Shown here: positions 4,232 through 28,759 of the stretch, piece by piece
Layout: each line of letters begins with the position of its first letter
How positions within the stretch are numbered: the first letter of the stretch is position 1
Assembly: GCA_051418015.1 (NCBI GenBank)
Contig: JBPRGF010000009.1
Coordinates: forward strand, 1-64,000
From: Candidatus Nitrospinota bacterium M3_3B_026
GTDB taxonomy: Bacteria > Nitrospinota_A > UBA7883 > JBPRGF01
Direction: 5' to 3'
DNA: 64,000 nucleotides
The notes under the pieces: model-generated
The model's database searches: none
Told to the model about the DNA's origin: nothing
Seen by the model: only the letters and a program-made list of their open reading frames with translations
Program-made: the position numbers and the translations under genes

Positions 4232-5617
4232 TTATTCTCCGGCCCGGACGACCCTGTCCCGGCCTTCCCTCTTCGCCTCGTAAAGCCCCTTGTCGGCTCT
4301 CTCGATTATGTCTTTCGGCTCGTCGTCCGGGGTAAACTCCGTGACGCCCATGGAGACGGTGACATGGATCACCTTGTCCAGGACGACGAACTCGTGGAGG
4401 CCGACGTTTTTGCGTATGCTCTCGGCCATCTTTAGAGCGTTTTTCAGCCTGGAGCGGTACAGGATCAGCGCGAACTCCTCGCCGCCGTAGCGCGCCACGG
4501 TGTCCGAGGCGCGGACGGACTCCTTTATGATCTCGGCGATCTTGGCGATGACCTGGTCGCCCGCCTGGTGGCCGTAGGTGTCGTTGAACTCTTTGAAGCG
4601 GTCTATGTCCAGCATAACGAGACAGCAGCTCTCGCCGGTACGCTTGAACTGGGCCACGGCCTCCTTGATCCTTTCGTCGAAGTAGCCGCGGTTGAAGACC
4701 CTCGTAAGCGAGTCCACGGCCTTTTCCTGCCTGGCCATCCTCAACTCTTTTTCCAGCCGGGAGATCTTCTCCCCCGCCTCGGCCACCTTCACGTTCGCCT
4801 CCACGAATTTCTCTCTCATCTCCGTGTTGGCTTTCTGGATCTCGAGGGTCTCCGCCAGGATGGCATGCTGGATTTTCTTGATCTCGTCGAGGCTGGTGGC
4901 GGCTATTACCTTCTTCGAGTAGTTGTCAAGCTTCGCCCCGTAGGATTCGCTGGAGACGGACAGGGACTGTATGTAGCCCGCCAGGGAGCCGATGATGGCT
5001 TTCAGCTCCTCCTTCTCCTGCTCGACGAGGCCGGCCTCGTTGCTCTTGTTTATGAAGAAATTGTATAGGGATCTGCTCAGCCCGTCCGCCGTCTCCACCT
5101 TAAGCCCCTCGAACCTTTTTGCGCGCTCGGTCTTGAGCGAGTCGAAAAAAGGCTCCCGCTCGTCCGCCAGCAGGATGGCCCCCTTGCTGAAGCCGTCCAG
5201 CAGCGTGACGTAGGGGGAGAGTATCTCCCTCGTCGCGTCGATGAGGTCTATCTTCTCCGGCTTCCTTTCGCCCTGCTCGATGGCGGGGGCCTGCTCCTTT
5301 TTCCCCTCGCGTCCGCCGAGGATGGAGGCGAGCCCCGACAGCAGCCCTCCTCCGCCTGCTTTTCCCTTCTCCTTCAGGCTGGCGTCGATCTTCTTGCAAA
5401 GCTGGGTATAATCTTTCTGAATCTGCTGGACCTGGAAGATGTTCTGCGCGGACTTGACTCGCCCCGAGAGCTTGTCGAGGGCGTTCTCCAGATTCTTGTC
5501 GCCTTTCACCAGCGCACGGGCGTGGGAGATCATCGAGGCGACCAGGTCCTGGTAAGACTTCGTAAGGCTTTCCAGGTACTTGTTCTTTTCCTTGTACCTT
5601 TTAAGTATTTCGCTCAC
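4232..5617 (-). CDS. GGDEF-domain diguanylate cyclase with N-terminal coiled-coil region
   Basis: RYGGEEFALIL active-site motif; DRFKEFNDTYGHQAGDQVI. Confidence 0.85.
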   Translation of the reverse strand: MSEILKRYKEKNKYLESLTKSYQDLVASMISHARALVKGDKNLENALDKLSGRVKSAQNIFQVQQIQKDYTQLCKKIDASLKEKGKAGGGGLLSGLASILGGREGKKEQAPAIEQGERKPEKIDLIDATREILSPYVTLLDGFSKGAILLADEREPFFDSLKTERAKRFEGLKVETADGLSRSLYNFFINKSNEAGLVEQEKEELKAIIGSLAGYIQSLSVSSESYGAKLDNYSKKVIAATSLDEIKKIQHAILAETLEIQKANTEMREKFVEANVKVAEAGEKISRLEKELRMARQEKAVDSLTRVFNRGYFDERIKEAVAQFKRTGESCCLVMLDIDRFKEFNDTYGHQAGDQVIAKIAEIIKESVRASDTVARYGGEEFALILYRSRLKNALKMAESIRKNVGLHEFVVLDKVIHVTVSMGVTEFTPDDEPKDIIERADKGLYEAKREGRDRVVRAGE

Positions 5618-18567: not shown

Positions 18568-20550
18568 ATGGAGACATTTTTGGGTCTGGCGCCGGTTGTC
18601 GGGATTCTGGGTCTTGGCGTGGCTTTCGGGCTTTACGCCGGCATCCTCAGGATCTCGCCGGGCAGCGAGAAGATGAAAGAAATATCGGAGATGATCCACA
18701 CCGGCGCCATGGTCTTCCTCAGGCGCGAGTACTCCATTCTTTCCGTGTTCGTCGTCGTGGTGTTTGTCCTTCTGTGGGTCTTCCTGGCCGCCAAGACGGC
18801 CATCGCGTTCATCGTGGGCGCGGCCTGCTCCATGCTGGCCGGTTTCATCGGCATGAAAGGGGCCACCAGGGCGAACGTGCGGACCTCGGAGGCGGCCAGG
18901 GATAAAGGCGAGGCCGCGGCCCTCAGCGTGGCCTTCTCCGGTGGCGCCATTATGGGCCTTTCGGTGGCCAGCCTGGGGCTCCTCGGGATCAGCGCCTTCT
19001 ACATCATATACGTGATGATGGGCTCGATGGAGGGGGTGACCTACCTGGCCGGGTTCGGGATGGGCGCCTCGTCGATCGCCCTCTTCGCCCGCGTGGGCGG
19101 CGGCATCTACACCAAATCCGCCGACGTGGGGGCCGACCTCGTGGGCAAGGTGGAGGCCGGCATCCCCGAGGACGACCCGCGTAACCCGGGCGTTATCGCC
19201 GACAACGTGGGCGACTGCGTGGGCGACACCGCCGGACTGGGCGCGGACATCTACGAGTCTTATGTCAACTCCGTGGTGGCCACCATCGCCATAGGAGCCG
19301 CGATGGGCGCCATGGCGCCGCAGTACATGGCCCTGCCGATACTGGTGATAATGATCGGCCTGGTGTCATCCCTGGTCGGGGTGGCCTCCATAAAGATAAT
19401 GAAGGGGCTGGACCCGGCCTCGGTCCTGCGCTATACCTCGTTCCTCGCGGCGGCGGTGATGCTGGCGGTTTCGTACCTGGCCACGGTCATGCTGGGGCTC
19501 GGCGTCAACGTATGGGGGGCGCTGGCGCTCGGCTGCGGCGCGGGGATCGCCATCGGGCTGATGACGGAATACTACACCGGCATGTTCAGTCCGGTCAAAA
19601 ACCTCTCCGCGGCGGCGTTGACGGGCCCCGCGACGATCATAATATCCGGTTTCGCCCTGGGTCTGGAGTCCGTCGCGCCGCCGGTGCTGGTGATAGCCGC
19701 CGCCACCTATTTCGCCGACAGCCTGGCGGGCCTCTATGGCATCGGCCTTGCCGCCGTGGGGATGCTGGCCACGGTGGGCATCACCATGTCCGTGGACGCC
19801 TACGGGCCGATCGCCGACAACGCGGGCGGAATATCGGAGATGGCCGAGCTGGGGCCGGAAACCAGAAAGATCACCGACGGGCTCGACGCCATCGGCAACA
19901 CCACCGCGGCTATCGGGAAAGGCTTCGCCATCGGATCCGCGGCGATGACGGCGCTGGCGCTCTTCTCCGCCTATACCAAAGCCGTGGGGCTCGACAGCAT
20001 AAACATTGTCGACGCCAAGGTCGTCATAGGGCTCTTCCTCGGCGGCATGATAACCTTCCTGATCGCCTCTTTCACCATGACCTCCGTCGGCAAGGCGGCA
20101 AAGCTGATGGTGGAGGAGATACGGCGCCAGTTCCGGGAGATTCCGGGCCTGATGGAGGGCAAGACCAAGCCGGACCCGGCCACCTGTGTCGATATCGCCA
20201 CCGAAGCCTCGTTGAAGGAGATGATCCTGCCGGGTCTGACGGCGGTGATGACGCCGGTCGTCATCGGCTTTCTCCTCGGCCCGGAGGGCCTTGGAGGACT
20301 GCTGGCCGGCGCCACGGTCACCGGCGTCATGCTGGCGCTGCTCATGGCCAACGGCGGCGGCGCCTGGGACAACGCTAAGAAATACATAGAGTCCGGCCAT
20401 CACGGCGGCAAGGGGTCCGACGCCCACAAGGCCGCCGTCGTCGGCGACACCGTGGGCGATCCCTTCAAGGACACCTCCGGCCCGGCGATGAATATCCTCA
20501 TCAAGCTGATGTCGATAATATCGCTGGTGATCGCGCCGTTGCTCGTCTGA
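18568..20550 (+). CDS. hppA: Membrane-bound proton-translocating pyrophosphatase
   Basis: 660 aa, about 15 TM helices; [19 protein letters not shown] and [16 protein letters not shown] motifs characteristic of V-PPases. Confidence 0.92.
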
Positions 20551-20580
20551 CGGCGCCGATAGCGCCCTCTTGTCACAGCG

Positions 20581-20621
20581 CCCCCGCTGGAGGCGGAAGA
20601 CGCCACGGCGGGGGTTTTTTT
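20581..20621 (+). terminator. Rho-independent terminator downstream of hppA
   Basis: CCCCCGC...GCGGGGG stem followed by T7 run. Confidence 0.75.
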
Positions 20622-20821
20622 GTCCGCTTGCGCCGATGCCGCATTTTCAGGCGCTCGTCCACGCCCGGCCGGGAACCCCGGTGATTGGTTGAGAGCCGAG
20701 GGTCTAACCGCCGCTTCCAACTGTTCGCCGTCCCACTGTCTCGCCGGACCCTGTGCCGCCGCCGACCTCCGTTCCCGGTCTCTTGCGCCCACAGGGTTTC
20801 AAAAGTAATAAAACGTTACTT

Positions 20822-20856
20822 TTACAAATAACGTCACCGCATGACGTTATTTGTAA
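20822..20856. promoter_or_regulatory. Perfect 15-bp inverted repeat TTACAAATAACGTCA-ccgca-TGACGTTATTTGTAA in the AT-rich intergenic region (candidate operator or hairpin)
   Basis: Read directly from the sequence; flanked by additional AACGTTA/AACGTCA half-site-like repeats. Confidence 0.5.
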
Positions 20857-21103
20857 CTTTTCGCGCCGGGTCTCGGGCGGAGTCCTGACATAACATATTG
20901 ATAATAAAGCTATAATAATAATGGCCCACGATTTGCTTTATAGGTTAGCGTGATTGTAAAAAGTATTTGTGCGTTACATCTCGAATAGACGTTTGTTGTT
21001 TCGAGCGCTAGGGATTTTCCAGCGGCTGGAGTCGTATTCAACCGCATCCGATGCTCTATAGTGTTGAAGAGCCGGGTTTTCGACTGAGAAAGAGGGGGTG
21101 TGA

Positions 21104-22243
21104 ATGAAGGTCGAGCAAAGGATCTGGACCGAGAAGGGGGGCTGGTCGCCTTCCGCGCCTGGGGAGGCGGAGAGCCTGGGGTCCGCCGCGGAGCTTGTTC
21201 TGGTGTTCGGCGGGCGGGAGAGGCTGACGGACGCTCGGCTTATGGGGGAGGTTCGGGCGGCGTATCCTTCCGCGCGGCTGGCAGGTCTCTCCACGGCCGG
21301 TGAGATTCTTGGCGGGGAGGCGCTTGAAGGCTCGCTGGCCGTCACCGCCGTGAGCTTTAAAAGCTCCGAAATCCGCATGGAACAGGTTAAGATAAGAGGC
21401 GTCGGCGGCAGCCACGAGGCCGGCCAGGCGCTGGCTTCGTCTTTGGGCCATGATGGTCTTCGCCACGTCCTGGTGTTCGCGGACGGTTTTTGCGTTGATG
21501 GGGCAGAGCTGGCCCGGGGGATGTGGGAGAACCTGCCTTACGGCGTCTCCGTCACCGGTGGTCTGGCGGCCGATGGGGAGGAGTTTGAAAAGGGCGTTGT
21601 CCTGTTGGACGGCGAGGCTTGGGGAGACAGGGCGGTGGCCGTCGGATTTTACGGGGATATTGAATCCGGTTTCGGCGCCGGGAGCGGCTGGGTTCCTTTC
21701 GGCCTTGAGAGGGAAGTGACCGGCGTGGAGGGTGTCATATTGTCGGAGTTCGGCGGCAGGACGCCGCTTGAGATTTATGAGAACTATCTTGGGGACGAGG
21801 CGGCGCGGCTTCCGGCCTCAGCGTCCATGTTTCCGTTGCTGATTCTTACGGACGACGACATGGGCCAGACCCGCTCCGTGGTGGCGGTGAACCGCGAAGA
21901 CGGCAGCGTGAGGCTGAACGGGGCCATTCGCAGGGGAGCGCGCGCCAGGCTGATGCTGGGCGGGCCGGAGCGGCTCGCGCCCGCGGCGTCGGAGGCGGCG
22001 GGCAGGGTCGCCGCCGCGCTGGGCGGAAAGAGCGCGGAGCTTGCGCTGGCGGCGTTCGGCCTTGGCAGGAGGATGATATTGAAACAACGCTCGGAGCTTG
22101 AGCTGGAGGCTGTTCTGGGAGCCCTTGGCGGCGCGCCCCTGGCGGGGTTTTATTCTCTCGGCGAGATATGCCCGCCCCGGCCCGGAGCGCCATATTCGCT
22201 TATGTCCCAGAGCGCCTCCCTTACAGTGTTGCGGGAGGATTGA
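21104..22243 (+). CDS. FIST-domain sensory protein (FIST_N plus FIST_C)
   Basis: Size and composition typical of FIST sensor proteins; operon partner of a hybrid histidine kinase (ATGA overlap). Confidence 0.5.
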   Translation: MKVEQRIWTEKGGWSPSAPGEAESLGSAAELVLVFGGRERLTDARLMGEVRAAYPSARLAGLSTAGEILGGEALEGSLAVTAVSFKSSEIRMEQVKIRGVGGSHEAGQALASSLGHDGLRHVLVFADGFCVDGAELARGMWENLPYGVSVTGGLAADGEEFEKGVVLLDGEAWGDRAVAVGFYGDIESGFGAGSGWVPFGLEREVTGVEGVILSEFGGRTPLEIYENYLGDEAARLPASASMFPLLILTDDDMGQTRSVVAVNREDGSVRLNGAIRRGARARLMLGGPERLAPAASEAAGRVAAALGGKSAELALAAFGLGRRMILKQRSELELEAVLGALGGAPLAGFYSLGEICPPRPGAPYSLMSQSASLTVLRED

Positions 22244-23547
22244 TGTCGCCGGTGTCCCATCCTCTTTTGCTCCGGCAGCTTCGCCGTCATTTCGGCGGCC
22301 CGGAGTCTTTCCCGGAGGAGTTGAAACCTTTTGTAGAGGCCGTCGACAAGGCGTATCACGACGCCGACTCCGACAGGCTCATGCTGGAGCGCTCCCTGGA
22401 GCTTTCGTCGCAGGAGTTCGTGATAAAGAGCGCCGAGCTGCGGCGCCAGATCGAGGAGCGCAAGAAGACCGAGGAGAGGCTGAAGGAGGAGAAGGAGAAG
22501 GCCGAGGAGGCCTCGAGGCTGAAAGACAAGTTCGTCTCCCTGGTCTCCCATGACATAAGGACTCCCTTCTCGTCGATAATGGGTCTTCTGCGGCTTTTGG
22601 GCTCCGACACCGTCCATCCCTTGCACGAGGACCAGAAGGCCCTGCTCGAGCATGTCCTGAGGATCGGCGAGGGGCTTGTGAACATGGTGGACAGGCTCCT
22701 TGACGTAAGCAAGCTGCGGACGGGCAAGATAAAACCCAAGATGAGGTTCGTCGAGGCGGCCAGCGTCACGGCGCAGGTTACCGGCGGCCTGTCCCACGCC
22801 GCCTCTGAGAAGGGGATAGACCTCGTGGACGAGACGCCGCCCGGGGAGCGGCTTTACACCGACCCGGCCCTTTTCACCGAGGTGATTCAGAACCTTGTCA
22901 CGAACGCGATAAAATTCTCCAACAAGGGCGACCGGGTGACGCTCTACATGCCCGAGGGCGGCGCCATCGCCGTCAGGGACACCGGGTTGGGGATCAGGAA
23001 AGAGAATATCCCGAGGCTTTTCCGCCATGACGAGAAGACCAACTCCACCGGGACCGCCGGTGAGCTTGGCGCGGGGCTGGGGCTGCCTTTCAGCATGGAC
23101 ATCATGAAGGCCCTTGGGGGGACGCTGAAGGTGGAGTCCATCCCCGGCGATGGCAGCGTGTTCACGGCGACCCTGTCGCCCGTGCGGCCGCTGATTCTTC
23201 TGGTGGAGGACGACGAGCTGCCCCGTCTGATCCTCAAGGAGAGCCTGGAGTCGCTGGACGCGGACGTGATAGAGGCCGAGCATGGCGAGGAGGCGCTGGC
23301 CGTCCTGGCGGAGACGACGCCGAACCTCGTGGTGACGGACATAAATATGCCCAACATGAACGGATTCAACCTGCTGAAAAAGATCAAGGAGAGCCGCGAC
23401 ACCAGGGATATCCCGGTGATGGTGATAACGTCCGACGACAAGATCGAGACAAGAGAGAAAGCCTTCAGGCTCGGCGCCGCCGACTTTTGCGGCAAGCCTC
23501 CCGTGATACACGACTTCCTGCCGAGAGCCCGCAGGCTCCTGGCCTGA
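22243..23547 (+). CDS. Hybrid sensor histidine kinase (HisKA-HATPase-REC)
   Basis: H-box SLVSHDIRTPFSSIMG; G-box GTAGELGAGLGL; C-terminal receiver domain ILLVEDDELPR...VVTDINMP. Confidence 0.85.
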   Translation: MSPVSHPLLLRQLRRHFGGPESFPEELKPFVEAVDKAYHDADSDRLMLERSLELSSQEFVIKSAELRRQIEERKKTEERLKEEKEKAEEASRLKDKFVSLVSHDIRTPFSSIMGLLRLLGSDTVHPLHEDQKALLEHVLRIGEGLVNMVDRLLDVSKLRTGKIKPKMRFVEAASVTAQVTGGLSHAASEKGIDLVDETPPGERLYTDPALFTEVIQNLVTNAIKFSNKGDRVTLYMPEGGAIAVRDTGLGIRKENIPRLFRHDEKTNSTGTAGELGAGLGLPFSMDIMKALGGTLKVESIPGDGSVFTATLSPVRPLILLVEDDELPRLILKESLESLDADVIEAEHGEEALAVLAETTPNLVVTDINMPNMNGFNLLKKIKESRDTRDIPVMVITSDDKIETREKAFRLGAADFCGKPPVIHDFLPRARRLLA

Positions 23548-23611
23548 AGGGCCACCCGTTCCGGCGTTTATAAATGTTTGACACCCATGGGTATAGTGCG
23601 AAAATGTAGCC

Positions 23612-25138
23612 ATGCGAATACTAGTCGCCGACGACATGGGCGCGATGCGTCAGACAGTGAAACGTACGCTGAACTCCCTTGGGTTCAACGAGATATCGGA
23701 GGCCAAGAACGGCAAGGAGGCCTACGACGCCATAATGGCCGGCCAGGACATCCCGGGGAGGAAGATCGACCTGGCCATAATAGACTGGAACATGGCGCCG
23801 ATATCCGGCATCGAGCTTTTGAAGACTCTCCGGGCCGACGAACGGACGAAGGACATCCTTTTCGTGATGCTGACCGCCGAGCAGATGCGCGACAATATCC
23901 TGCTCGCGCTGCAGGCGAGGGTTGACGAGTACATCATAAAGCCCTTCACGGCGGAGACGGTCAAAAAGAAGTTCGACATCATTACCCTGCGTGAGCTGGG
24001 GAAGATAAGAAAAGAGGTGGACGACCACCTGGCCTCGCTCAAGGATCGGCTGGAGCCGGAGACCGCCGAAGAGAGAAAAAAAGCCCTTGGCGGGTTCAGG
24101 AAAAAGCTCGCCGCCGCAGGCCGGATATCTCCCTGGAGCTATTACGCCCTGATGGAGACGGGGAAGACGCTTTTGAAGTTCGGGGAGGCCGACGAGGCTG
24201 AGAAATGTTTCCGGGACGTGTTGTCCAAAAACTTTGGCGTGGCCGAGGCGCACAAGGAGCTTTCCAGGATACTCCGCGACAGGGGGAAGATCGCCGAGTC
24301 GGCCGAGGAGTTGCGGATCGCGTCGATGGAGCGGCCCGACTCCGGCGAGATCAAACAGAAACTGGGAGAGGCGTACCTGAAGGAGGGGCGCCTCGACGAG
24401 GCCATAGACGTCCTTTCGGATTCCCTGAAGCTGCTGGAGGAGAGCAGGGACAAGCGGCTTCTCGCTCGGGGCAGGAGCGGCCTTGGCGAGGCCAGGATGA
24501 AAAAGGGCGAAAAGGACGGGGACGAGAAGATGAGACAGGAGGCCCTGGAGGACTTCGGCGAGGCGGCGCGCCTGGACCCGGACCTTGTGGCCGCCAGCTA
24601 CAACCTGATGGTCGCCTGCAAGAAGGCCGGAATGACCGAAAAAGCCATGGAGATCTTCAAGAGCATACAGGAGATGGAGCCGAAGGACGCGGAAGGGTGG
24701 ATCGCGCTGGGGAAGGCGTACCTCGACCAGGATGAGAAGTCAAAAGCCCTTTTCGCCTTCAGGAAGGCCGAGGATCTTTCGGAGGGGCGCTTCCCGGTGT
24801 ACGAGGAGATTTCGAAGGCCCTCTACCACGCCAGGATATTCGACGAGGCTCTCGCCTATCTCGACAAGGCCAAGGAGATAAACCCTTCCGGCGTCTTCTC
24901 CTACAACCTGGCGGGGATCATCCACCGGATGAGAGACGAGAGCGCCAAAGCCCTGAAGGAATACCAGAAAGCCTCCAAGCTGGACCCGGACAACCCTTCG
25001 GTCTACTTCAACCTCGGGGTGGCGTATTACAAACTCGGCGACGGGGAGAAGAGCACAGAGCAGTTCAGAAAGGCAAAGGGCCTTGACCCGGACCTCCCGG
25101 AGCTTGCCTCCTACATGGAAAAGCTCGGGATAGCCTGA
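23612..25138 (+). CDS. Response regulator (CheY-like receiver) fused to TPR repeats
   Basis: ILVADDMGAMRQ...AIIDWNMAPISG receiver domain; multiple TPR units (AYLKEGRLDEAI, YNLMVACKKAG, YFNLGVAYYKLG). Confidence 0.8.
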   Translation: MRILVADDMGAMRQTVKRTLNSLGFNEISEAKNGKEAYDAIMAGQDIPGRKIDLAIIDWNMAPISGIELLKTLRADERTKDILFVMLTAEQMRDNILLALQARVDEYIIKPFTAETVKKKFDIITLRELGKIRKEVDDHLASLKDRLEPETAEERKKALGGFRKKLAAAGRISPWSYYALMETGKTLLKFGEADEAEKCFRDVLSKNFGVAEAHKELSRILRDRGKIAESAEELRIASMERPDSGEIKQKLGEAYLKEGRLDEAIDVLSDSLKLLEESRDKRLLARGRSGLGEARMKKGEKDGDEKMRQEALEDFGEAARLDPDLVAASYNLMVACKKAGMTEKAMEIFKSIQEMEPKDAEGWIALGKAYLDQDEKSKALFAFRKAEDLSEGRFPVYEEISKALYHARIFDEALAYLDKAKEINPSGVFSYNLAGIIHRMRDESAKALKEYQKASKLDPDNPSVYFNLGVAYYKLGDGEKSTEQFRKAKGLDPDLPELASYMEKLGIA

Positions 25139-25184
25139 GGGGGTTCCTGCCCGGCGGATGCGACCGGCCACGGCCCTGCCTGGA

Positions 25185-25204
25185 ATGCTAAACATGTTTA
25201 GCAT
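25185..25204. promoter_or_regulatory. Perfect 20-bp palindrome ATGCTAAACATGTTTAGCAT immediately upstream of the ribosome-binding site of the RHH antitoxin gene (candidate autoregulatory operator)
   Basis: Read directly from the sequence; ends 13 nt before ATG 25217. Confidence 0.6.
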
Positions 25205-25216
25205 GGAGGATTGGGT

Positions 25217-25441
25217 ATGTTCGGAATAAGACTGCCGGCCAATGTGGAGGAGCGTCTTGACAGGCTCGCCAAGCGCACGGGCCGGACGAAGACCTATTAC
25301 GCGCGCCAGGCCATTCTCGAATACCTGGACGACCTCGAGGACATCTACCTGGCGGAGAAACGCCTGACGGACATCCGCGCCGGACGAACGCGGCCTGTCT
25401 CCTTGGATGAGATGAAAAAGCGCCTTGGCCTGGACGATTGA
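25217..25441 (+). CDS. Ribbon-helix-helix antitoxin of the RelB/DinJ/ParD-type family (orphan; partner toxin degraded)
   Basis: 74 aa; [34 protein letters not shown] is a typical RHH (CopG-like) N-terminus; GGAGGA ribosome-binding site 6 nt upstream. Confidence 0.65.
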
Positions 25442-25514
25442 GTTCGATCCACGCGCCGAGAGGGACTTTATTTATTTTTTACGCCCGTGGAAAGTCATGC
25501 CGGATTTGATATAG
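25425..25514 (+). pseudogene. Truncated relE/parE-family toxin remnant (29 codons), overlapping the antitoxin stop
   Basis: Translation (TTG)[14 protein letters not shown]... reproduces the characteristic RelE/ParE N-terminus, then diverges and terminates; the remainder is deleted up to the convergent kinase gene ending at 25525. Confidence 0.55.
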
Positions 25515-25524
25515 CCTGAATCCT

Positions 25525-26886
25525 TCACCCATTCTCCTCTTCCATCGCGGGAAGTGAGACGGTGAACCTCGCCCCTTTCCCCTGTTCGCTGTCCAGGCTG
25601 ATGGAGCCGCCATGCGCTTCGGCGGCAAGCTTGCAAAAGGCCAGGCCGAGCCCGTGGGAGCCGTCTCCGCCGCCCGGTTTCATGGAGCTTTTGGCCTGCT
25701 CGAAGGCGTTGAATATCCGCTCCCTGTCCGCCTCGTCCACTCCCTCGCCCTCGTCGCTCACCGAGAGAAGGACCATCTCCCCCTCCTCCCTCACGCCGAC
25801 GGTGACGCGGCCGCCGGTGGGGGAGTGTCTCAGCGCGTTGTCCAAAAGGTTCGACAGTATCCGGCGGACAACGCCGCCATCGGCCTCCACCATCGCCCTG
25901 TCAGGCCCGTTGTATTCCATCCTGATCTCGTCGAAACGGGCCACCACCTCGAACTCCTTCAGGATTCTCCGCGCCATGTCCGTGAGATTGAAACAGCTCG
26001 TGTGGAGCTGGAACTTGCCTATCTCCATCTTGTGGGAGTCGAGGGTCGCCTTTATCATGTCCAGCAGCCTTTCGCAGCCGAACCGGGAGAGTTTCAATAT
26101 GTCCGTCGTCTCGCCGCCCGGCTCCGTGCCCTCGAGGTAGGCGAGGTTCGATATGACCAGCGACAGGGGGTTTTTCAGGTCGTGGATGGTCATGTACAGA
26201 AGCCGCTCCTTTATCGTCTCGGCTTCCCTGAGCTGGGCGAGGTCTTTTTCTATCGTCTCGATCTTCTCCCGGCCTTCCCGGACGCTGGACTCGAGCATTT
26301 TGACCTGGGCGTTCTTTCTCAGCTTGGCGATCTTCGCCGCCACAGCCTTCAGCGCCCCGCCGATGGAGCTTTTGTCCACGGCGAAGAAGGGATGAGCCTC
26401 TCTCATCCCTCCCACGTTCAGGATCCCCATGACGTTCCCGTCGAAAGAGAGCAGGGGGAACGAGCAGAATATGTTCTCGGAGTGGCGGGTGGGGTGGTTC
26501 TGCCTCTTTATCTCCTTCAGGTCGTCGATGTTCGAAAAATAATACGGCTTGCTGTTCCGTATCACGGCGCTTGATATGGAGCCGTCGTCAGGGTCCACGG
26601 TCTTGCCGGTTATCTCCCCCGCGCCTTCGCCCGTGGCCTCCTCCACCCTCCATCCATCTTCGCCCTTGATGACTATCGAGGCCGACGAGCCGCCGAGCAG
26701 GTCCTGGAATATGTCGAGCATCATCGCCAGGGCTCCGGCGGGATCCGCCGTGGAGGATACGTCCACACTCATGATGGCGTCCCTGGCGGCCACCTGCAGC
26801 CGCCAGAACCACGAATCATCGTCCTGTTTTTTCCTGACGAGGGCGCGGAACTTTTTAAGGTCCGCGGCTGGACTTGTCGCTGGCAT
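25525..26886 (-). CDS. Sensor histidine kinase with N-terminal GAF-like domain
   Basis: H-box LLYMTIHDLKNPLS; HATPase motifs LLDNALRHSP, GGDGSHGLGLAFCKLAAEAHGGSI. Confidence 0.85.
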   Translation of the reverse strand: MPATSPAADLKKFRALVRKKQDDDSWFWRLQVAARDAIMSVDVSSTADPAGALAMMLDIFQDLLGGSSASIVIKGEDGWRVEEATGEGAGEITGKTVDPDDGSISSAVIRNSKPYYFSNIDDLKEIKRQNHPTRHSENIFCSFPLLSFDGNVMGILNVGGMREAHPFFAVDKSSIGGALKAVAAKIAKLRKNAQVKMLESSVREGREKIETIEKDLAQLREAETIKERLLYMTIHDLKNPLSLVISNLAYLEGTEPGGETTDILKLSRFGCERLLDMIKATLDSHKMEIGKFQLHTSCFNLTDMARRILKEFEVVARFDEIRMEYNGPDRAMVEADGGVVRRILSNLLDNALRHSPTGGRVTVGVREEGEMVLLSVSDEGEGVDEADRERIFNAFEQAKSSMKPGGGDGSHGLGLAFCKLAAEAHGGSISLDSEQGKGARFTVSLPAMEEENG

Positions 26887-26966
26887 TATTTTTATGGCCT
26901 GCTCTCAATAGATTAAACCCCGATAATTACAAATATACATTACTTTGAGGAGTTTGACGCGGATTT

Positions 26967-27782
26967 TCAAGGCTCTGGAGAACAGGGCTCCTGGAAAACC
27001 CGCCCGTCGTCCAGCCGGACGGCGGTCAGGAGTCTCCCCCACACGCACCCGCTGTCGAGGGCGTACATGTCATTTTTCATGACAAGCCCCTGCGCCGCCC
27101 AGTGGCCGCAGATTATCAGATCCTCCGCGCTCTTGCGTCCCGGCGCGTCACGCCAATGGATTTTCCCCGGCGGGGCCTTGCCGGGCGGGCCGGAGAACTC
27201 GAGATCCATCTCGCCGTCCGGCGTGATGACGCGCATCCTCGTCATGGCGTTTATGATGACGCGAAGCCTGTCCGTCCCATGAAGGCCATCCATCCATTTT
27301 TTCGGCCCTCCGTCGAAAAGCTCCCTCAGCAGCGCCGGTCTGCCCTCCGAGCGCAAGACGCCCTCCGCCTCGCGGGCGAGCCTCTCCGCCTCGGCGGCTG
27401 TCCACTGGGGCAGCAGGCCCGCGTGAGCGAGGACGCGGCGCCCCTCGCGATGAAGCAGCGGCCGGCGGACAAGCCAGTCCAACAGCTCATCCCTGTCCGG
27501 CGCGGCGAGGACGTCGCCGAAGGTGTCGGAGCCGCGGGCTTGCATGGCGCCGTCGGCCACGCCGATCAGGCGCAGGTCGTGATTGCCCATGACGCTGATG
27601 ATCCTGTCGCCGAGCCCCGCCGCCCACCGCAGTACGGCCGCGGAGTCCGGACCCCTGTTCACGAGGTCGCCCGTCAGCCACAGCCTGTCCTTCGCTGGGT
27701 TGAAGCCGATCTTCCCCAGCAGTTTTTCGAGCGGGCCCATGCGGCCCTGGATGTCGCCGATCGCGTATGTGCCCATATTCAA
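26967..27782 (-). CDS. apaH: Bis(5-prime-nucleosyl)-tetraphosphatase (symmetrical)
   Basis: AIGDIQGRMGPLEKLL...LTGDLVNRGPDS...GNHDL metallophosphatase motifs of ApaH. Confidence 0.85.
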   Translation of the reverse strand: MNMGTYAIGDIQGRMGPLEKLLGKIGFNPAKDRLWLTGDLVNRGPDSAAVLRWAAGLGDRIISVMGNHDLRLIGVADGAMQARGSDTFGDVLAAPDRDELLDWLVRRPLLHREGRRVLAHAGLLPQWTAAEAERLAREAEGVLRSEGRPALLRELFDGGPKKWMDGLHGTDRLRVIINAMTRMRVITPDGEMDLEFSGPPGKAPPGKIHWRDAPGRKSAEDLIICGHWAAQGLVMKNDMYALDSGCVWGRLLTAVRLDDGRVFQEPCSPEP

Positions 27783-27928
27783 CGCCGTTAAAGGCTGAAA
27801 GTATAACAGCGGCGCGCCGCCGAAAAAAATATTTGATTAATTATCATGGCGGGATCATATAGAATCGTATGAGAAGCGCGGCGAGCGCGTTCGTTTGATA
27901 TGGTTTCCAGCTTTCAGGAGAAGCGTTT

Positions 27929-28717
27929 ATGTCTTTACCGGGTATCGGTGTAATCCTAGTCCTCGTAGTACTGCTCCTTATCACCATCCTCAGGGTGATA
28001 AACGAGTACGAGCGCGCTGTGGTGTTTCGTCTTGGGCGGCTCCTGGAGGTGAAAGGGCCGGGCCTGATCATCCTGCTCCCGGTGATCGACCGGATGGTGA
28101 GGATATCGCTGCGGCTCGTGGCGCTGGATGTGCCGTCCCAGGATGTCATCACGAAGGACAACGTCTCCGTAAAGGTCAACGCCGTAGTCTACTTCCGCGT
28201 GGTGGACCCGGAGCGGGCGGTCATACACGTGGAGGACTATTTCTACGCCACAGGCCAGCTTTCCCAGACCAGCCTGCGCTCCATCCTGGGCCAGGTGGAC
28301 CTCGACGAGCTTCTGTCCGAGAGGGACAAGATAAACCAGGACCTGCAGGAGGTGCTCGACCAGAGGACGGACCCGTGGGGGATAAAGGTCGCCAACGTCG
28401 AAGTGAAGCACGTGGATTTGCCCAACGAGATGCAGCGCGCCATGGCAAGGCAGGCCGAGGCGGAGCGCGACAGGAGGGCGAAGGTGATAAACGCCGAGGG
28501 CGAGTTCCAGGCCGCCCAGAGGCTTTTTGACGCCGCCGCCATCATAGAGAAACAGCCGGCGGCCCTCACACTACGGTACCTGCAGACGATGCGCGAGATG
28601 TCCAGCGAGAAGGCGAGCTTCAGCGTTATACCGCTGCCCATGGATTTCCTGGAGCCTTTCATGCGAAAGTTCGGCTTCGTCCCGAAGCCCGAGACCGGCG
28701 GTGAGGGGCAGGCTTAG
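27929..28717 (+). CDS. SPFH/band-7 (stomatin-like) membrane protein
   Basis: N-terminal TM helix; [15 protein letters not shown] and extended band-7 domain; CAGGAGAAG ribosome-binding site. Confidence 0.85.
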
Positions 28718-28759
28718 GCCCGCGCCCTGGAAGGCTTTGGAATGACGTTTTGACGGTTT

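Follow-up and report, generated by a model that had tools for sequence, protein, structure and literature searches.

We examined if a small ribbon-helix-helix (RHH) gene standing without a partner in a 64-kb stretch of Nitrospinota DNA (64,000 nucleotides; the whole stretch analysed is called the window) is what remains of a toxin-antitoxin (TA) pair, and what has become of the toxin and of the antitoxin left behind. The window carries a candidate operator palindrome, a Shine-Dalgarno (SD) sequence, an antitoxin ORF and a toxin stub between the convergent genes for a TPR response regulator (TPR-RR) and a GAF histidine kinase (HK). Comparison with related loci indicates that this is very probably an eroding type II relBE-family TA cassette from which the toxin was removed by deletion, a reading to which we assign a probability of about 0.93. 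A separate assembly, L001 (Logan assembly of run SRR28149505), was identical base for base to window positions 19143–35441, so that the cassette junction was recovered in two assemblies. The convergent kinase gene, on the minus strand, encodes 453 aa with GAF, HisKA and HATPase_c domains. Upstream of the antitoxin and on its strand, from about 19143 to 25138 (L001 2–5996), lies a string of genes for a FIST/FIST_C sensor, a hybrid HisKA-HATPase_c-Response_reg kinase and a Response_reg-TPR protein; Nitrospinota relatives down to 64% identity keep the same gene order.

The antitoxin gene (25217–25441, plus strand, stop TGA at 25439–25441) is intact and encodes a 74-aa RelB-like RHH protein. It matched the NCBIfam model NF048017 ("type II toxin-antitoxin system RelB family antitoxin") across profile positions 1–70 of 70 with 115.7 bits (cut-off 50), and its N-terminus matched Pfam RHH_1 (PF01402) with 32 bits (cut-off 20.5); homologues amounted to 2276 proteins at E <= 1e-3. 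The nearest relative, P0002, is 93% identical in amino acids and is encoded on metagenome contigs L002 and L003, where the same palindrome, SD and start codon are followed by a gene that overlaps the antitoxin stop and encodes an 88-aa toxin. This protein, which ends GHRKQVYR, matched PF05016 over its full length (63.9 bits) and TIGR02385 RelE/StbE (41.2 bits), and the solved structures nearest to it were 2khe (E 1e-28), Rv2866 (3g5o) and E. coli RelE (4fxe); these matches and solved relatives identify the partner toxin as an mRNA interferase of the RelE type. On both contigs (L002 1093–1654; L003 822–1383) a further TA pair, made up of an RHH antitoxin and a PemK/MazF-family toxin, comes immediately after the intact RelBE cassette, and the two pairs make a small cluster within an AT-rich backbone.

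In the window, a frame that starts with TTG (25425–25514) overlaps the antitoxin 3′ end by 17 nt and runs for 29 codons to a TAG at 25512–25514, after which 10 nt precede the TCA at 25525–25527 that is the minus-strand stop of the kinase gene; in this arrangement the coordinates agreed with those of a first-pass annotation of the DNA. The annotation took the whole frame for a RelE/ParE toxin stub. This holds for its first 15 codons, of which 13 residues are identical to those of the L002 toxin, whereas the last 14 codons are not toxin sequence; likewise, the assignment to RelE/ParE was borne out at the level of the superfamily (PF05016 in the L002 counterpart), the type being RelE/StbE and not ParE proper. 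The toxin remnant thus delimited comprises the TTG start and codons 2–15 (25425–25467, plus strand; homology end 25467 ± 2, from alignments A1 and A2, tblastn and a family HMM). The alignment of window and L002/L003 DNA (A1) was continuous at about 93% identity from ~25176 to ~25467, ran without interruption across the antitoxin-toxin overlap, matched 20/20 over the operator, and found no similarity beyond. The surviving toxin N-terminus fits the family motif MAW.IE.DP.A, and residues 16–29 are read-through of AT-rich DNA (25468–25510, plus strand) that is unrelated to any toxin and similar only to two contigs of a sister lineage, L019 and L020.

Searches of the window for the rest of the toxin gave the same end point. 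The intact toxin used in tblastn found residues 1–15 at 25425–25469 only (E 9e-5), and an HMM trained on 57 further intact toxins of the family picked the stub as the sole segment with E < 1 among 1403 six-frame segments (E 0.022, profile positions 1–15). Neither tblastn nor the family HMM found another toxin fragment or RelE-like toxin in the 64-kb window, and the mere 57 nt between the junction and the kinase stop showed no toxin similarity in any frame. At 29 aa the stub by itself is too short for a match to any Pfam or NCBIfam model, and none was obtained. Two observations had been named beforehand as speaking against a deletion, namely a stub unlike RelE/ParE N-termini and an intact toxin in another frame nearby; since the HMM selected the stub and nothing else, and tblastn found nothing in the window past residues 1–15, the deletion reading stands, as does the description of the RHH gene as an orphan. 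The window antitoxin is without a complete overlapping cognate RelE/ParE-superfamily toxin gene, having toxin codons 1–15 only, and where a functional type II system has both genes intact and a shared autoregulated promoter, here the toxin is deleted and the -10 element is without its TAT.

The history of the site could be followed in relatives. The sister Nitrospinota lineage L019/L020, from two other sequencing runs, has a flanking TPR-RR orthologue (P0122) that is 89% identical and complete synteny (FIST, hybrid HK-RR, TPR-RR, small RHH gene, GAF-HK, Metallophos, Band_7); in alignment A2 the cassette of the window recurs there at the corresponding site, and its junction (GAGAGG[G/T]A.CT and then a T-rich segment) and right flank agree with those of the window. 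Values of dS (NG86) between window and sister were 0.41 for TPR-RR, 0.28 for the kinase and 0.33 for the antitoxin, so that the antitoxin lies within the range of its flanks, consistent with vertical co-inheritance. In L021/L022, with a TPR-RR 64% identical, the neighbourhood and downstream synteny are the same and there is no cassette, the orthologous genes finishing at the equivalent position. As the site is empty in L021/L022, the cassette was inserted in an ancestor of the window and L019 lineages; as both of these lineages have the same junction, the toxin deletion predates their split. The deletion asserted by the first-pass annotation is thereby placed in time: judged from these alignments, the cassette was evidently acquired horizontally, and the toxin deletion is evidently old, ancestral to window and sister lineages. 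In the empty sites the convergent TPR-RR and GAF-HK genes overlap tail-to-tail by 28 nt (L021 1721–1748; L022 4853–4880); in the reconstructed pre-insertion site of the window lineage they stand 5 nt apart. L022, the empty-site Nitrospinota relative, comes from the same assembly (ERZ27249683) as L002. A scan of the genome contigs with the flanking TPR-RR protein gave only distant TPR proteins (25–35% identity) and no orthologous locus; the orthologous loci described here were found via the protein database and the contigs encoding its members.

The insert of 372 bp (25139–25510) is bracketed exactly by a 9-bp direct repeat, ATAGCCTGA, both copies of which are kept in both lineages (in L019 at about 4659–4667 and about 5044–5052). 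Copy 1 (25130–25138, plus strand), identified by repeat search, makes up the last three codons (I-A-stop) and thus the native end of the TPR-RR gene at the left edge of the inserted cassette; copy 2 (25511–25519, plus strand) forms the right edge, 5 nt before the kinase stop codon. One such 9-mer repeat is expected by chance per 700 bp, and its position at both edges suggests a target-site duplication or integration through microhomology. No transposase, terminal inverted repeats or other insertion vehicle could be recognised at the insert (inverted repeats were judged by eye). An integron-cassette origin was considered, but no attC-like GTTRRRY core was recognisable by eye. The left flank of the insert (25139–25175, plus strand) is GC-rich and non-coding and showed no similarity to the intact L002 cassette (A1, A2); when the origin of this flank and of the AT-rich segment at 25468–25510 was sought in ~90–100 loci and the window, matches (short blastn matches in the case of the left flank) were obtained only to L019/L020. 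Across the AT-rich segment and the leader there was no terminator-like site, with fold z-scores of -0.1 to +0.45. The stub frame has 29 codons in the window (25467–25514) and in L019 (~4997–5047) despite offsetting indels (a T-run longer by 2 and an A-run shorter by 2 in the window); the middle of the peptide differs, and the last residues (KVMPDLI vs KVMPGLI) and the stop codon are shared. This equal length is probably a coincidence, or it may represent homopolymer slippage.

The palindrome ATGCTAAACATGTTTAGCAT (25185–25204) is its own reverse complement over 20 bp; no other perfect palindrome in the 64-kb window has arms of 9 nt or more, and the chance expectation for 10-nt arms is 0.11 per Markov-1 shuffle of the window. 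As had been noticed in the first pass, the antitoxin ATG at 25217 stands 13 positions past its last base; between them is the SD, GGAGG (25205–25209, plus strand), 7 nt before the ATG, kept in L002 and changed to GGAAG in L019. RelB-type antitoxins repress their own transcription, and the proposal that the palindrome is a candidate operator gained from comparison across the family. The palindrome is 100% conserved in L002/L003/L019/L020. Among 77 distinct upstream regions, drawn from 80 metagenome loci of the antitoxin family together with loci found earlier, 67 have GCTA-N8-TAGC at a fixed distance, -26 to -39 from the start codon (chance 8e-4 per region), and the other ten have near-variants of it. 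The majority form, GCTATAATTGTATAGC, found in 47 regions, includes the -10 hexamer; the form GCTAAACATGTTTAGC, which is the 16-bp core at 25187–25202, is common to the window and L002/L003/L019/L020, and L036 has GCTAAACGTGTTTAGC. Relative to the majority form the window operator is changed symmetrically in both half-sites, as would be anticipated if a symmetric RHH dimer reads the site. The family-wide inverted repeat thus gives strong comparative support to a predicted operator role for the palindrome. The core occurs once in the window with up to 3 mismatches allowed, and a search of viral contigs for the exact operator gave 0 matches.

The promoter and the coding sequence of the antitoxin were compared with those of the relatives. 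The window alone lacks the TAT of the extended -10 element TGGTATAAT, which abuts the palindrome in L002 and L019 (3 bp lost; A2 columns 101–110), and retains the remnant CCTGCCTGG^AATGC at 25176–25189 (plus strand); no sigma-70 consensus promoter was found in 24900–25800. A weak promoter is conceivable because the remnant, TGgAATGCT, keeps the TG motif and, within the hexamer, the A of position 2 and the T of position 6; its AATGCT occupies the position of TAGGCT in L036, which was read by eye as the L036 -10. From the TPR-RR gene, upstream on the same strand, to the antitoxin no terminator-like site was found, so that read-through from that gene is possible as well. With 3 bp of the -10 box lost, any current expression of the antitoxin must use this weakened promoter or the upstream read-through.

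Changes in the antitoxin gene were assigned to branches by parsimony with L002 as outgroup. On the window branch, 9 changes are synonymous and 4 are non-synonymous (omega 0.13), and there are neither stops nor indels; transition/transversion-matched simulation gave 8.7 non-synonymous changes expected and P(<=4) = 0.007, from 13 substitutions only. By these values (omega 0.13, P = 0.007) purifying selection would appear to have acted on the window ORF during much of the period after the toxin loss. Replacements on this branch are L2F, D9N and S67K, position 2 being L in 75/75 relatives and K67 being unseen in the family. On the L019 branch codon 41 has an insertion of 1 bp, and codons 44 and 57 have become stops; the branch also has the SD change from GGAGG to GGAAG, 6 synonymous changes and seven replacements, several at family-invariant positions (P7S, Y27C, I4M). 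The L019 antitoxin is thus a pseudogene, with changes compatible with neutrality (P = 0.30). The two branches were not significantly different (9:4 vs 6:9, Fisher P ~0.15 as an estimate and not a computed value). Loss of the gene in the sister lineage shows that the orphan antitoxin can be dispensed with.

Loss of the toxin was also seen elsewhere in the family. An intact toxin ORF of 85–96 aa begins at antitoxin start +208 in 64 family metagenome loci. Loci L004–L009 and L023, whose antitoxin is 76% identical and intact, have a TGG-to-TAG nonsense change at toxin codon 55 and a downstream frameshift (L004 2708–2975); L028 and L078 have truncated toxins, and about nine family loci have no recognisable toxin ORF. 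A minority of family loci, by this comparison, evidently lost the toxin independently. The L004-type cassette with its inactivated toxin is present on contigs from several peat and soil metagenomes. The gene tables of L006 and L008 list no toxin; the L006 DNA is an L004-type pseudogene, and an ORF scan of L008 gave the same 54-aa truncated ORF. L010, a candidate orphan antitoxin, was rejected as such upon finding an intact uncalled 90-aa RelE-type toxin at L010 3209–3481; gene tables therefore under-report toxins in this antitoxin family, and orphan status needs a check of the DNA. In Photorhabdus, pseudogenisation affected the toxin only in 185 copies and both genes were lost in 186, antitoxin-only loss accounting for 8, and toxin-first pseudogenisation is a documented common route for chromosomal TA systems (PMC13617665), in agreement with the first-pass view of the locus as a classic step of TA decay. 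Orphan antitoxins are abundant in Klebsiella, with anti-addiction among the roles proposed (PMC7192599).

The present state of the antitoxin may be understood in more than one way. It could be a neutral relic, already non-functional or unexpressed, whose ORF is intact since too little time has passed and whose low omega is a small-sample accident or the legacy of earlier selection; we give this somewhat less than an even chance and place it slightly ahead of the reading in which the antitoxin is retained, is still expressed, and neutralises RelE-type toxins from a paralogous module or from incoming plasmids or phages (anti-addiction, or immunity), which we consider doubtful. The TAT deletion specific to the window, the failure to find a consensus promoter, the clear pseudogene in the sister lineage and the two unusual replacements, L2F and S67K, all fit a relic, as does the finding that in Photorhabdus erosion of both genes is about as common as that of the toxin only (186 vs 185; PMC13617665). 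A relic is harder to reconcile with 13 window-branch substitutions that brought neither stop nor indel, and with 4 non-synonymous changes where 8.7 were expected (P = 0.007), over the same period in which the sister copy gained 2 stops and a frameshift. These figures (omega 0.13) arose after the toxin had gone, a loss older than a divergence of dS ~0.3–0.4, and so count towards retention, together with the intact 74-aa ORF, its full C-terminal region aligned to NF048017, the intact SD and operator, and the lack of a terminator after the upstream gene, permitting co-transcription. An intact cassette 93% identical to that of the window circulates in marine-sediment metagenomes, including ERZ27249683, which also holds a Nitrospinota relative of the flanking genes; and anti-addiction is an established concept, as put forward in the discussion of PMC7192599 and in PMC2654758. 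Retention is, however, weakened by the fate of the gene in the sister lineage (frameshift, two stops, SD mutation), by the 3 bp lost from the window -10 box, by L2F at a family-invariant position, by the absence of a RelE-like toxin from the 64-kb window and by the small sample of substitutions. A fuller version of retention, in which selection kept the orphan antitoxin through a species-level divergence (dS ~0.3–0.4), with expression rewired to read-through from the two-component operon, and in which it acts in trans as immunity against RelE toxins of mobile elements or as antitoxin or regulator of a paralogous module, seems to us rather improbable.

Two further explanations have less in their favour. 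The RHH protein might have been domesticated as a transcription factor for the surrounding FIST, hybrid HK-RR, TPR-RR and GAF-HK genes, given that its gene is on the same strand as the FIST/HK-RR/TPR-RR string, 79 nt after the last gene, beside the convergent kinase, and bears the signature of purifying selection. We regard this as very unlikely, for the operator core occurs only once in the 64 kb (<=3 mismatches), before the antitoxin's own gene, the insertion is lineage-specific, and the neighbourhood functions in L021/L022 with no such gene and in L019 with a defunct one. It might also be supposed that the toxin is in fact intact and that the stub is produced by mis-assembly or a frameshift error, the data being from a metagenome-assembled genome and the junction adjoining error-prone T- and A-homopolymer runs. 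To this we give practically no credence: the separate assembly L001 is identical, two more runs, from the 11% divergent L019/L020 lineage, show the same junction, and the 57 nt from junction to kinase stop are without toxin similarity in any frame.

We return to the eroding relBE cassette; nothing found contradicts the deletion or the erosion reading. In an ancestor of the window's Nitrospinota lineage, the space between the convergent TPR-RR and GAF-HK genes received a cassette made up of a promoter bearing the palindromic operator, then the relB-like antitoxin and, overlapping it, the relE/stbE toxin. Toxin codons 16–88, with whatever lay downstream, were then lost by deletion before the window and L019/L020 separated; still in place are the operator, the ribosome-binding site, the complete antitoxin ORF and the first 15 toxin codons, which now run into unrelated DNA. 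The antitoxin, if made, would presumably bind as an RHH dimer to the symmetric GCTAAACA/TGTTTAGC half-sites beside or over the -10 and repress itself, and would have no toxin left to neutralise in cis; the 29-aa stub peptide, being without a whole RelE fold, should not be capable of toxicity. Erosion would appear to be ongoing, with the sister antitoxin dead and the window ORF apparently selected for most of the time after the split, but with 3 bp of the window -10 lost.

Seen in this way the locus is a natural time series of TA erosion in the poorly studied Nitrospinota, from empty site to insertion, then a shared toxin deletion, then divergent fates of the antitoxin. It otherwise confirms known TA decay, being an ordinary, textbook and well-resolved case of toxin-first erosion that opens no new question; the mildly interesting point is whether the window antitoxin is still functional, for anti-addiction or as a partner in trans, or is just beginning its decay. 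The conserved GCTA-N8-TAGC operator with symmetric half-site variation, in a very large RelB-like family, could guide studies of binding specificity.

In comparison with RelB/RelE modules, the locus has the antitoxin first and the toxin start overlapping the antitoxin 3′ end, an N-terminal RHH domain in the antitoxin, an inverted-repeat operator at the promoter and the motif of the toxin N-terminus; it differs from them in that the toxin is absent from codon 16 on and the -10 box is damaged, so that there is no working TA module. With anti-addiction modules it shares an intact chromosomal antitoxin without a toxin in cis, a signature of purifying selection and the presence of near-identical intact cassettes in the environment. 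Among anti-addiction examples, the chromosomal ccd of Erwinia chrysanthemi (Saavedra De Bast et al., 2008) reportedly protects against homologous plasmid-borne toxins. The classical examples are complete TA pairs, whereas the window has an orphan with a damaged promoter and with loss of the gene in the sister lineage. The likeness to the eroded TA loci of Photorhabdus (PMC13617665) and Klebsiella (PMC7192599) includes the small intergenic insertion in an otherwise conserved neighbourhood and the inactivation of the toxin first, followed in some lineages by decay of the antitoxin; the window differs in its host phylum, Nitrospinota, in its cassette, and in that its toxin was lost not by point pseudogenisation, as in L004–L009, but by a clean deletion common to two lineages.
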